Shown here in pieces: positions 22,239-26,942 of a stretch of DNA of 29,228 nt. A program made the position numbers and the translations under genes. The stretch comes from a virus (taxonomy: Duplodnaviria > Heunggongvirae > Uroviricota > Caudoviricetes), in the IMG/VR virus record IMGVR_UViG_2778261380_000007, positions 1-29,228 of that record. One strand, given 5' to 3'. Below the pieces are notes generated by a model. That model had not been told where the DNA came from. It was given only the letters and a program-made list of their open reading frames with translations, and did not search any database. Every line of letters begins with the position of its first letter. The stretch's first letter is position 1.

Positions 22239-22862
22239 CTAACGTGTGACCGCATTCAAAATGTTGTCTGCGATTGACTCTTCTTTGTGGCATTGCACCA
22301 CCAGAGCGTCATACAGCGGCTTAACAGTGCGTGACCAGGTGGGTTGAGTAAGGTTTGGGATTAGCATCGTTACAGCGCGATATGCGGCGCTTGCTGGCAT
22401 CCTGGAATAGCCGACTCCTTTGCATCTTCCGCACTCTTTCTCGACAACTCTCCCCCACTGCTCTGTTTTTGCTATATCAACCGCACGGCCTGTACCGTGG
22501 CAATCTCTGCACCTTGCTCCCGGCGTCGCGGCACTACGGCAATAATCCGCATAAGCGAATGTTGCGAGCACTTGCAGTACCTTTGCCTTAGTATTTCCTT
22601 CAAGCTTTGCCACGCCACGGTATTTCCCCGATACCTTGTGTGCAAATTGCATCAGATAGTTGATAGCCTTTTGTTTGTCGTTCTGGCTGAGTTCGTGCTT
22701 ACCACAGAATGCAGCCATTCCGAATCCGGCTTGTGATTGCGCCATCCCCATAGCAGCCATCACATCAGTACCGGAAAGAGAGTCAGAAGCCGTAGCCCGT
22801 GGTGAGTCGCTCATCATCGGGCTTTTTGGCGAATGAAATTTAGCTACGCTTTCGAGTCTCAT
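22239..22862 (-). CDS. Q: Late gene antiterminator Q (lambda-type)
   Basis: 207-aa ORF, essentially identical to lambda Q from memory, including the Cys-rich zinc-binding region (CRDCHGTG...CGRCKG). Confidence 0.95.
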
Positions 22863-23524
22863 GCGCCTTCTCCCTGTACCTGAATCAATGTGAGATTTCC
22901 GTAGAACACTGCGCCGGTATCGATATACATCTGGTTGGCAAACTTGAGTGGTTTCACTGCTGGCGTATGACCAAAGATGAACGTGTCCGCGCCTTTGATT
23001 TCTTTCACGATCCCGTCTTGTGAGTTGCTGATTCGTTCGCGGTTCCAGATTACCTGCTGATGATCAACTGGCTTACCAAACTCGTATTCGTCACAAGGAT
23101 AATCGGCGTGGCAGATGACATATTTTTTACCTTTGCTCACCAGTTCGATGATTAACGGAAGTTCATCTGCTTTATGGGCAAGAGCTTTAGCCAGAATTTC
23201 TTTGTCGTAATCGAGATTAAAGAACCAGCCACCGCCATTAAGCAACCAGTGATTGACGTTTCCACGCTCTGATAAGCCATCAATCATCATGTGCTCATGG
23301 TTTCCACGTACAGCTCTGAACCAGGGGAATGTGATTAATTCCAGGCATTCGACGTTCTCTGTACCGCGATCGACCAAATCGCCAACCGAGATAAGCAGGT
23401 CTTTTTTGGTGTCGAATCCTATCGTCTCCAGTTTTTCCATCAGGTTCGTGTAGCATCCGTGCAGATCGCCAACTACCCAAATATTTCGGTATTTGCTGCC
23501 ATCAATTCTTTCGTAATAGCGCAT
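22859..23524 (-). CDS. ninI: Ser/Thr protein phosphatase (lambda NinI / orf221)
   Basis: Start placed at ATG 23522-23524 ([25 protein letters not shown]...), giving 221 aa and matching lambda phosphatase motifs GDLHG, GDLVDRG, GNHE; the ORF-track start at 23599 is an upstream extension overlapping ninH. Confidence 0.9.
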
Positions 23525-23708
23525 CTCTTTCACTCCATCCGCGATGAACCATGAGAACGTCGTTGACGATGGCGTGCATTTTCCCGTCTTTATCATCAAC
23601 GTATTTTCTTACCGTACCGCGACTACATTTCAGTCTGCGTGCTACTTCTGTCTGGTTTCCGTATGCTTCAACGAGCATGTCTGGAATGGTTTTTACTGAG
23701 AACGTCAT
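23502..23708 (-). CDS. ninH: NinH
   Basis: 68-aa ORF identical in length and near-identical in sequence to lambda NinH from memory. Confidence 0.9.
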
Positions 23709-24363: not shown

Positions 24364-24870
24364 TTATGGTCTGCCATGGTTTTCATGAAAACCCAGTTCT
24401 TTTTCTGCCCTCTTCCTTTCTGCAATAGCGTCAATGATGCTAGCAAATATTCCAAGATATTTGGTGCGCCCATCTACGCATATATTCGCAATCCACTTAC
24501 ATCTCTCTTTATTGAAATATACTCCAGTCACTCCTGACGAATTGGTTATTTTTCTCTTTTGGTTCTGTGCATTCTGTTGGTGTGTAACCAATCGAAGATT
24601 AGATAGCCTATTATCTGACCTTACTCCATTTATATGATCAATTTTATACCCTAATGGAATCTCACCATTATTTATCATCCATATAACGTGGTGAGCATAA
24701 GTAATTACACCATCGATAGTTAACATCCTATAACCATCACTCCTAATGTAACCAGCAACACTGCCAACCTTAACATTATTAGAAGGAGACACTTTCCATC
24801 TAAGTACACCTAAAACATCATCATATGATAATTTATTTCTTAATTCGTCTATGTTGCTTATATTTCTCAT
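24364..24870 (-). CDS. HNH homing endonuclease with AP2-like DNA-binding domain
   Basis: 168-aa ORF in a markedly AT-rich segment. N-terminal NUMOD4-like region (WKVSPSNNVKVGSVAGYIRSDGYRMLTIDGV), HNH motif (IDHINGVRSDNRLSNLRLVTHQQN), C-terminal AP2-like segment (SGVTGVYFNKERCKWIANICVDGRTKYLGIF). Confidence 0.8.
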   Translation of the reverse strand: MRNISNIDELRNKLSYDDVLGVLRWKVSPSNNVKVGSVAGYIRSDGYRMLTIDGVITYAHHVIWMINNGEIPLGYKIDHINGVRSDNRLSNLRLVTHQQNAQNQKRKITNSSGVTGVYFNKERCKWIANICVDGRTKYLGIFASIIDAIAERKRAEKELGFHENHGRP

Positions 24871-25012: not shown

Positions 25013-25191
25013 CTTGTTTTCCTCGCACGATGTCTTAGCCACCGGATATCCCACAGGTGAGCCGTGTAATTGAAGGTTTTTACATCAGATTCTTTTGGGA
25101 TTGGCTTGCGTTTATTTCTGGAGCGTTTCGTTGGAAGGTATTTGCAGTTTTCGCAGATTATGTCGGTGATACTTCGTCGCTGTCTCGCCAC
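25009..25191 (-). CDS. ninE: NinE
   Basis: 60 aa from GTG at 25189-25191 with an AAGGAGG RBS (4-nt spacing, slightly short); sequence [26 protein letters not shown]...[17 protein letters not shown] matches lambda NinE. The ORF-track start is further upstream. Confidence 0.8.
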
Positions 25192-25331
25192 ACGTCCTCC
25201 TTTTCCTGCGGTAGTGGTAACCACCCTGTTGGTGTTCTTTCACACCGGAGACACCATCGATTCCAGTAAGGTTGCCCGGGTCGAAAGCGATCGCCTTCCT
25301 TTCGCTCTCCACATCGATAACAGTGCTTCAT
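25158..25331 (-). CDS. ninD: NinD-like small zinc-ribbon protein
   Basis: 57 aa from ATG 25329-25331, which overlaps the methyltransferase stop (ATGA); CxxC...CxxC pattern ([16 protein letters not shown]...WCLRCE); same length as lambda NinD. Overlaps the ninE start by ~34 nt in another frame, so the exact boundaries are uncertain. Confidence 0.55.
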
Positions 25332-25918
25332 GCGATCACCATTTTGCATGGTTTAATCGCCATGCCGGTAGCCAGTTCAAAATCGGAGTCGCACTGATTG
25401 CCCCACATATCCCACCCGGTCACTTTGTCGCGGCTAAATAACTCACAGCGCGGCACGTCGCCAAGCAACTTAGCTAACATGTCTCTTACGATCGGTGGTT
25501 TTGCACTGTGCTCCATTCTCGGTGCGGTAAAGTGCTGGCATATGGAAGCGTCCATTCTCTCAGGCAACCGCCCTCGAACAGCAAACAAGCAATCCTCGCT
25601 ATTTGCCCTGGTCATATGCCCCATTCCGATCGCACTGTTGCCTTTGTGCTTATTGGTTTTGTGCCAGGTAAAGCCTTTCATAGTCATCAACCTGAATCCC
25701 CATGCCTCAACTACCTTTAGCGCTTCGGCTGGCTGTGTCGGCACCCACCACATCGCTAACAAGCAAGATTCTGGATCCGCTAAATCCCATACTGGCAGTC
25801 GGCAAATGTCCTGAACATTCATAACATCGTATTTATGTCCAGCACCGCGATTGCCATCGTTGGCTTTGTCGCGATATTGCCAAGGCGGATCTGCGTAAAT
25901 AAGTCGGTATTTGTTCAT
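25328..25918 (-). CDS. Orphan DNA N6-adenine methyltransferase (MT-A70-like, DPPW motif)
   Basis: 196-aa ORF; catalytic motif DPPW at residues 10-13 ([15 protein letters not shown]). No restriction endonuclease partner adjacent. Confidence 0.8.
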
Positions 25919-26355
25919 GCAGCTTTATCTCCCCATCGCGCTTTCCATTCCAGAGCCAGTCTCGCTTCGTCTGACCACTTAACGCCACGCTCTGCACCGA
26001 ATGCCTGTATAAGCTCTAATAGCTCCGCAAATTCGCCTACACGCATCCTGCTGGTTGACTGGCCTATTACCACAAAGCCATTCCCGGCAAGGTTAGGAAC
26101 AACGTCCTGCTGCTTTAATGCTGCGGTAAACACACACTTCCAGCTTTCTGCATCCAGCCAGCGACCATGCCATTCAACCTGACGCGAAACGTCACCAAGG
26201 CAAGCCCAAAGCTTCCGGTTTTGGTCTAAGCTGCGGTTGCGCTCCTGAATGGTTACTACGATTGGTTTGGTTGGGTCTGGAAGGATTTGCTGGATGGCTT
26301 GAATGGCGTTCTGCTGATGGATGGGGCTTCTTAGTTCAAACGTTAGTTTCCTCAT
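25915..26355 (-). CDS. ninB: NinB (Orf) recombination mediator
   Basis: 146-aa ORF, same length as and highly similar to lambda NinB from memory. Confidence 0.9.
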   Translation of the reverse strand: MRKLTFELRSPIHQQNAIQAIQQILPDPTKPIVVTIQERNRSLDQNRKLWACLGDVSRQVEWHGRWLDAESWKCVFTAALKQQDVVPNLAGNGFVVIGQSTSRMRVGEFAELLELIQAFGAERGVKWSDEARLALEWKARWGDKAA

Positions 26356-26572
26356 GGGATGAACTCCAGTGTGCGATGTTAAATTCCCATTTAATTACCT
26401 TTGCATACCCAATTTTGAACCCATCAATACCTATCCACCGCTTGCCACTCCAATAAGCTGTACCACTATGCTTGAAATGATGTGGATGCTTAGATTGAGT
26501 GGTCACTGTTACAGGTAAATATGGCTTCGGGTATTCCCCATTCCCTGGATAACCAGATTTAATTCTGCTCAT
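26336..26572 (-). CDS. Hypothetical small His-rich protein (78 aa)
   Basis: ATG overlaps the stop of the upstream 108-aa ORF (ATGA) and its 3' end overlaps the ninB start, giving a chain of coupled genes; no recognised motif. Confidence 0.5.
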   Translation of the reverse strand: MSRIKSGYPGNGEYPKPYLPVTVTTQSKHPHHFKHSGTAYWSGKRWIGIDGFKIGYAKVIKWEFNIAHWSSSHEETNV

Positions 26573-26895
26573 TGATACCCTCTCTCACTTAATCGCCTCC
26601 ACGCTTCGTTAAACTCTTCACGAGTTGCGCCGGATTTTCTTTCTTCAAACATCATGCATTCGCTGATGTCTCCCCATGACTTTGGTCGCTTTTCAGCGAA
26701 CAGATCATCCCATTCGAATACCCAGCGGCCTGATTTTCGGTAGTGGTAAATGGTCAGCCATGTTGTGCTGTTCGCTGGATACCCATAGAGAACTTCGACT
26801 TTTTGATCACGGTCTTTATGCTTTTTCAGCAGGATAAAGCCAGCAACCAGCGAAGCTCCGGCAAGAATGACGATTGGAATTTGCCAGTCAGCCAC
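26569..26895 (-). CDS. Hypothetical membrane-anchored protein (108 aa)
   Basis: Strong RBS (GGGGGAGAGGG) upstream of the ATG; N-terminal hydrophobic helix IPIVILAGASLVAGFILL; first gene after the tR2-like terminator. Confidence 0.6.
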   Translation of the reverse strand: MADWQIPIVILAGASLVAGFILLKKHKDRDQKVEVLYGYPANSTTWLTIYHYRKSGRWVFEWDDLFAEKRPKSWGDISECMMFEERKSGATREEFNEAWRRLSERGYQ

Positions 26896-26910: not shown

Positions 26911-26942
26911 AAATAAAAAGGCCTGCGATTACCAGCAGGCCT
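26911..26942 (-). terminator. tR2-like rho-independent terminator between the helicase gene and the nin region
   Basis: - strand: AGGCCUGC-UGGUAAUC-GCAGGCCU followed by UUUUUAUUU; same position as lambda tR2 relative to the replication genes. Confidence 0.75.

Follow-up and report, generated by a model that had tools for sequence, protein, structure and literature searches.

The open reading frame at positions 25328..25918 (minus strand, 196 aa, ATG start) of the window, a 29,228-nt stretch of DNA from a P22-like (Lederbergvirus-type) E. coli prophage, encodes an MT-A70 family (beta-class) adenine methyltransferase located between ninB and ninD. The product is probably a stand-alone N6-adenine methyltransferase of the lytic nin operon, which would most likely act on GATC and could serve the phage as a mimic of host Dam.

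The ORF was taken from the ORF list and compared with Pfam, PHROG, PADLOC and NCBIfam profiles. The Pfam MT-A70 model (PF05063) matched with an E-value of 6.7e-25 (88.4 bits, cut-off 23.9 bits) and was covered over its entire length (profile positions 1-172 of 172). Further matches were obtained with PHROG 359 'DNA methyltransferase' (2e-106) and with the PADLOC model MTase_II for Type II methyltransferases (4e-70). PF05063 was the sole Pfam match, the phage Dam family PF05869 was not matched, and the NCBIfam profile search returned no specific model for this ORF. Catalytic motif IV (DPPW, residues 10-13; 25880..25891, minus strand) was identified from the translation and from alignments of 7 and of 49 sequences. 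D10, P11 and W13 were invariant in both alignments, and one of the 7 sequences carried A in place of P12. A C-terminal ELFSR motif (residues 159-163; 25430..25444, minus strand) was located using the same alignments; E159, L160, F161 and R163 were invariant among the 7 sequences, and in a PDB sequence match the motif aligned to EIFAR of Tetrahymena MTA1. This order of motifs, with DPPW N-terminal and ELF(A/S)R C-terminal, fits the permuted Rossmann fold of MT-A70 enzymes.

For structural comparison, an AlphaFold2 model was generated with 49 homologues as input (pLDDT 76.7, pTM 0.79) and searched with Foldseek. The catalytic domain of human METTL3 (E 8e-13, TM 0.69), Tetrahymena MTA1 (E 3e-11) and METTL4 were matched. 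A PDB sequence search led to families in agreement with Foldseek, and phmmer aligned residues 4-165 to MTA1. With its 196 aa, the protein is essentially a bare catalytic domain and has no separate target-recognition domain. The ORF belongs to the MT-A70 family, all testable defining features being present. Judged from sequence and model, its product is most likely a small, single-domain, SAM-dependent N6-adenine methyltransferase. The coordinates, the DPPW motif and the MT-A70 assignment given in the initial annotation were thus right by the ORF list, the PF05063 match and the AlphaFold2 fold.

Genes of the window lie on the minus strand and read leftward: replication genes come first, then the nin region, Q, the lysis genes and the virion genes. 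The integrase gene is on the plus strand at the left end. Around the methyltransferase gene the order is NinB, methyltransferase, NinD, NinE and NinF (Pfam), then HNH_3, NinG, NinH, a NinI-type phosphatase and Q. The upstream border is formed by the recombination mediator gene ninB/orf (25915..26355, minus strand; Pfam NinB, 3.8e-54), the downstream border by the 57-aa form of ninD (25158..25331, minus strand; Pfam NinD, 1.7e-37). Both borders are ATGA overlaps. At 25915..25918 (minus strand), read directly from the sequence, the ninB stop overlaps the methyltransferase start, an arrangement of translational coupling; at 25328..25331 (minus strand), placed by comparison with the P22 junction, the methyltransferase stop overlaps the P22-type ninD start. 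The sequence reads ...GCTGCATGAAC... across the left junction and ...TCGCATGAAG... across the right one. A GGAG Shine-Dalgarno-like element was likewise read 10 nt upstream of the methyltransferase start (25929-25932, minus strand).

In P22, ninB and ninD overlap directly, the ninB stop and the ninD start sharing ATGA. In the window-versus-P22 alignment, homology stops at 25914 and resumes at 25334. From this gap and the junction sequences, the methyltransferase gene is a 587-bp, exactly gene-sized insertion relative to P22. The slot in lambda holds NinC (annotated as PAPS-reductase-like), which overlaps NinB on one side and NinD on the other by 4 nt, and the earlier placement of the gene in the lambda ninC position was borne out by the same slot and the same overlaps. 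The ninB|ninD junction is a plug-in slot, empty in P22 and occupied by NinC in lambda and by the MT-A70 gene here; the window gene is a clean example of cassette exchange at this junction.

The listed starts of two nearby genes are probably too far upstream. The longest NinD ORF (63 aa, start 25349; 25158-25349, minus strand) is probably over-extended, and the P22-type start is the ATG at 25331-25329 (57 aa), a codon that overlaps with the stop of the methyltransferase. In the longer ORF, the match to the Pfam NinD model sets in at residue 7, and PGAP agrees with the 57-aa start in three related prophages; in the AR_0058 prophage, PGAP annotates the 63-aa form. The NinI-type Ser/Thr phosphatase ORF (22859-23599, minus strand) is listed with a TTG start, 246 aa and approximately 100 nt of overlap with ninH. 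In related prophages it is annotated with approximately 223 aa, and the true start is probably further downstream. Two small ORFs lie between the helicase gene and ninB (26336-26895, minus strand), one of 108 aa (PHROG 5903) and one of 78 aa (PHROG 29435). The 78-aa ORF overlaps the ninB start and is without PGAP annotation in the AR_0058 prophage; neither ORF accompanies the methyltransferase in three other inspected prophages.

A terminator scan found a strong intrinsic-terminator-like hairpin with T-run at 26919..26942 (minus strand), directly behind the DnaB-like helicase gene and ahead of the nin genes. It has an 8-bp stem with 6 GC pairs (AGGCCTGC...GCAGGCCT), followed by TTTTATTT. Its position is analogous to that of the lambda nin-region terminators. 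By this analogy, the hairpin is likely a tR2-like terminator that would make expression of the nin region dependent on antitermination. A scan of the region upstream of the methyltransferase ORF on its own strand gave no promoter-like site that stands out. From lambda biology we infer that the gene would be delayed-early, antitermination-dependent and silent in the lysogen.

Of 5,426 complete E. coli genomes, 39 carry the gene, each copy matching the full 591 bp at 95-100% identity, and the NinB, methyltransferase, NinD arrangement was found in all 30 of the 39 genomes that were listed for gene order. The copy in the AR_0058 prophage is 100% identical and corresponds to RefSeq WP_023157010.1 'MT-A70 family methyltransferase'; the window gene is therefore an uncharacterised member of a known family and not a discovery. 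Five translated E. coli copies were all intact and differed at 15 variable sites, 10 of them at third codon positions. Synonymous differences exceeded non-synonymous ones in every pairwise comparison of the five except one, which was tied. Against the Erwinia orthologue dS was saturated, so that dN/dS at that distance is uninformative. The gene is maintained and under purifying selection. Four inspected related prophages differ in their backbones, with O/P-ren or DnaB-type replication genes and NinG or RusA.

The family comprises 1,055 clusters at E <= 1e-10 across Enterobacterales prophages, whose members are variously named 'MT-A70 family methyltransferase', 'adenine methylase' or 'IME4'. 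Megablast against phage records returned only Erwinia phage 59 (74%); the sequenced-phage collection thus lacks the exact gene, which turned up solely in E. coli chromosomes and in one IMG/VR contig. Among 80 related viral loci the methyltransferase occurs in at least three unrelated contexts (nin/replication, int-proximal behind a PerC-like gene, and others), and no neighbouring gene is conserved across them. The lack of a conserved partner across the family argues for stand-alone action.

The initial annotation had called the target site unknown; characterised relatives narrow it to a likely GATC. Expression of the MT-A70-type protein p32 of Serratia phage BZS1 (44% identity to the window protein) in dam- E. 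coli rendered plasmid DNA MboI-resistant and DpnI-sensitive, and the m6A-sensitive enzymes HinfI and Hin1II still cut, from which GATC specificity was concluded (PMC7556043). According to the same paper, the bacterial MT-A70 subfamily has its GATC-specific prototype in M.EfaBMDam of Tn1549; the window protein is approximately 42% identical to a copy located in a Tn1549-like conjugation module. For M.EcoGV of O104:H4, GATC was determined by PacBio (Fang 2012, as cited in PMC10810198 and PMC6602927), and this enzyme is described as highly similar to that of Stx phage PA8 (Gong, Chakraborty and Koudelka, NAR 2023, PMC10810198), which is 64% identical to the window protein over residues 2-187. REBASE is said by Gong et al. 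to annotate many relatives as GATC enzymes (PMC10810198). Identity within the subfamily is 42-64%, with 54 invariant columns in the 7-sequence alignment. In a neighbour-joining tree, the window clade (with Erwinia phage 59, epsilon15 and PA8) falls between the BZS1/phiES15 and Tn1549 clades. GATC-tested enzymes therefore bracket the window clade and one GATC-tested member lies inside it, all of them falling outside the immediate subclade of epsilon15, Erwinia phage 59 and the window protein. With three tested relatives bracketing the protein, GATC is the parsimonious specificity. Literature searches on methylation of epsilon15-type phages gave nothing relevant, and a broader search on MT-A70, prophages and methylomes gave nothing further.

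We propose the following course of events, in which activity, specificity, timing and benefit are all predicted. Translationally coupled into the rightward delayed-early (nin) operon and located downstream of a terminator, the methyltransferase would be made only after antitermination, during lytic growth and together with replication and recombination genes. It would then act on the adenine in GATC sites of replicating phage DNA, host DNA being methylated incidentally. By topping up limited host Dam, the phage enzyme could complete GATC methylation of rapidly replicating phage DNA, and packaged DNA with fully methylated GATC might resist nucleases acting on un- or hemimethylated GATC, for instance MboI/DpnII-type restriction enzymes or MutH. 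The initial annotation had suggested protection from host restriction or modulation of gene expression, either of which would be a putative role. E. coli hosts already possess Dam, so that the selective benefit is not self-evident. For M.EcoGV and BZS1 p32, activity on GATC was observed solely when the enzymes were over-expressed in vivo, a setting known to raise concern about off-target methylation (PMC10810198).

The window is strongly depleted of GATC (63 sites observed versus 147 expected under a maximal-order Markov model, ratio 0.43). Long-standing protection of these sites in the phage lineage would not lead one to expect such a deficit, but the genome is mosaic and the cassette may be a recent arrival; GATC counts as such cannot decide specificity. 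CTAG is rarer still (ratio 0.16). Within its 591 bp, the methyltransferase gene has 5 GATC, where the remainder of the window predicts approximately 1.2 (Poisson p 0.008); one of the 5 falls in the codons for the ADP portion of the DPPW motif.

No restriction endonuclease was detected among the window ORFs with Pfam or PADLOC models, and none is annotated anywhere in the AR_0058 prophage, which carries the identical gene. The sole qualification to the orphan status claimed earlier, which is otherwise upheld, is an HNH_3 endonuclease ORF of 168 aa (24364-24870, minus strand) between ninF and ninG, 458 bp downstream of the methyltransferase and on the same strand, its 5' end overlapping the 3' end of ninF. 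That the two form a restriction-modification pair is hardly credible. The HNH ORF matches homing-endonuclease models (Pfam HNH_3, PHROG 99, PADLOC HEase), it is separated from the methyltransferase by NinD, NinE and NinF, and related E. coli prophages cease to be homologous to the window at approximately 24907, before the HNH ORF. It is absent from the nin region of 4 of 4 inspected methyltransferase-carrying prophages, and from that position in P22 as well. It looks like a mobile homing-endonuclease insertion and was rejected as cognate nuclease; the adjacent and co-inherited endonuclease that defines a Type II system was not found. An inactive passenger gene in a decaying prophage is also very unlikely. 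Carriage by so few complete E. coli genomes would be consistent with it, and activity is a prediction, but all 39 copies are full-length, the five translated copies are without internal stop, catalytic residues and coupled ATGA junctions have been kept, most substitutions are synonymous or fall on third codon positions, and the window encodes a complete-looking set of P22-like virion and lysis genes. A relaxed or non-specific DNA adenine methyltransferase conferring broad protection from restriction, as known for M.EcoGII, Hia5 and OS31 p25, is unlikely, although such phage enzymes exist and a bare catalytic domain would suit this activity. Without PNB-2, the PA8 enzyme had weak activity and no preference among substrates (PMC10810198). 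However, the non-specific enzymes were described apart from the MT-A70-type BZS1 p32 in the same study, in which p32 left HinfI and Hin1II sites cleavable (PMC7556043), and 3 of 3 tested members of the subfamily gave GATC.

The PA8 enzyme also bears on whether the substrate could be RNA, an alternative that the initial annotation did not consider. Purified alone, it used SAM on dam- DNA at near-background level and was without GATC activity in vitro; together with PNB-2, which is encoded by the gene upstream, it formed a 1:1 complex that preferred 16S rRNA and 30S subunits over DNA (>13-fold) and over 23S rRNA (PMC10810198). Exchange of DPPW for APPA abolished function of the PA8 homologue (PMC10810198). 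By analogy with M.EcoPA8orf6770P-PNB-2, the window enzyme could modify 16S rRNA or another RNA (m6A) and alter host translation during phage development, leaving DNA aside, and two RNA enzymes, METTL3 and METTL4, are among the nearest solved structures. We regard this as quite unlikely. The RNA preference of PA8 required PNB-2, the enzyme alone being weak and non-specific, and the modified base in rRNA was left unassigned (PMC10810198); the DNA enzymes MTA1/AMT1 are structurally as close. Tblastn of PNB-2 and PNB-1 against the whole window gave no homologue (best E 7.4), the upstream gene here is ninB, and PNB-2 is directly adjacent in 3 of the 80 related viral loci, all three Stx-type. Variants without the C-terminal ~27 aa occur in non-STEC bacteria lacking PNB-2, and the STEC-type tail has been linked to PNB-2 binding (PMC10810198). 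Similarity of the window protein to PA8 ends at about residue 187, its terminus being KPCKMVIA versus FLEKTNERKNDVDKGITS in PA8, and the window protein lacks the STEC-type tail. No stx genes were found in the window, and the gene is part of the nin operon, in contrast to the int-proximal, stationary-phase-induced transcript of PA8. Adjacent PNB-2, STEC-type tail and int-proximal location in a Stx prophage, the features of the holoenzyme, are thus all lacking, and without PNB-2 and tail the window protein fits the described PNB-2-less non-STEC variants. A partner-independent RNA m6A methyltransferase (rRNA or mRNA) that re-tunes host translation in the lytic cycle has a similarly slim chance of being right. 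If true, an RNA target would carry the one existing report of a phage enzyme that methylates rRNA (Stx phage with PNB-2) over to a much larger family of Enterobacterales prophages.

Conservation of the partner was inspected in further Stx2a phages. In P14437 (Oslovirus), the enzyme is identical to that of PA8 at 207 of 208 positions and PNB-2 is identical. In phage PA28, the methyltransferase is that of PA8 (208/208) and the upstream gene is a different ORF of 76 aa (L001, 2768-2998), which shares only its last ~10 residues (LYIDEFENAL) with PNB-2 (PA8; L004, 2851-3282). The PA28/PA8 recombination joint lies just before the methyltransferase start. The difference in the upstream ORF means that the proposed rRNA-targeting partner is replaced even among Stx2a phages.

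A GATC-methylating, stand-alone enzyme of the nin operon is the more probable reading. By itself the gene matters little, as one more orphan phage methyltransferase whose likely GATC target duplicates host Dam. Its use is as a natural PNB-2-less comparator, with lytic expression predicted from its position, for the conflict between GATC DNA and 16S rRNA as substrates.

BZS1 p32, which has relatives in HK639 and phiES15, falls into the same bacterial MT-A70 subfamily as the window protein, is 44% identical to it over the whole domain and shares all catalytic motifs with it. Like the window gene, p32 is an orphan phage gene, and it was active in vivo without a partner. Unlike the window protein, it carries a 24-aa insertion after the TWxKxN segment, and its gene is located beside int/xis and not in the nin region. 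The closest characterised relative is M.EcoGV / M.EcoPA8orf6770P, with the same DPPW core and the same tree subclade. It differs in an extra C-terminal tail of approximately 18 aa, in PNB-2 encoded upstream with a 4-nt overlap, and in a gene position near int with expression reported in lysogens at stationary phase (PMC10810198), as opposed to the lytic nin operon of the window.

The nearest phage orthologues are the '6N-adenine methylase' of Erwinia phage vB_EhrS_59 (82%) and the 'adenine methylase' of epsilon15, phiV10 and SPN1S (78%), all of them uncharacterised. The Erwinia phage 59 gene, like the window gene, directly follows a NinB-like gene in the nin region (L003, 2542-3588), whereas epsilon15-like phages carry theirs near int and behind a PerC-like gene. 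METTL3-METTL14, ciliate MTA1/AMT1 and METTL4 share the fold and the DPPW motif (Foldseek TM 0.66-0.70, sequence E 1e-10 to 1e-6) at 22-26% identity. These eukaryotic enzymes work only as heteromers, together with a paralogue that is catalytically dead and with accessory subunits that bind nucleic acids; in contrast, no such partner is encoded beside the window gene.

A different methyltransferase family occupies a comparable position in phage 933W. ST933Wp34, a PF05869 Dam (HP1/T1 type; 1.2e-64), is an orphan encoded directly after ninB with a 4-nt overlap (L009, 3381-4351), and belongs to a sequence family unrelated to the MT-A70 protein of the window. M.EcoVT2Dam, of the same family as the 933W gene, is given as GATC-specific in PMC6602927. 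By analogy of position and likely target, we propose the PF05869 Dam of 933W as a functional analogue of the window gene. Two unrelated adenine methyltransferase families (PF05869 Dam and MT-A70) thus recur next to ninB/orf-type genes in different phages, and some metagenomic phages (L086, L089) have the reversed order, methyltransferase then NinB. More speculatively, placement of a methyltransferase after ninB/orf may reflect a functional link, in which full GATC methylation would shield recombination intermediates from MutH.
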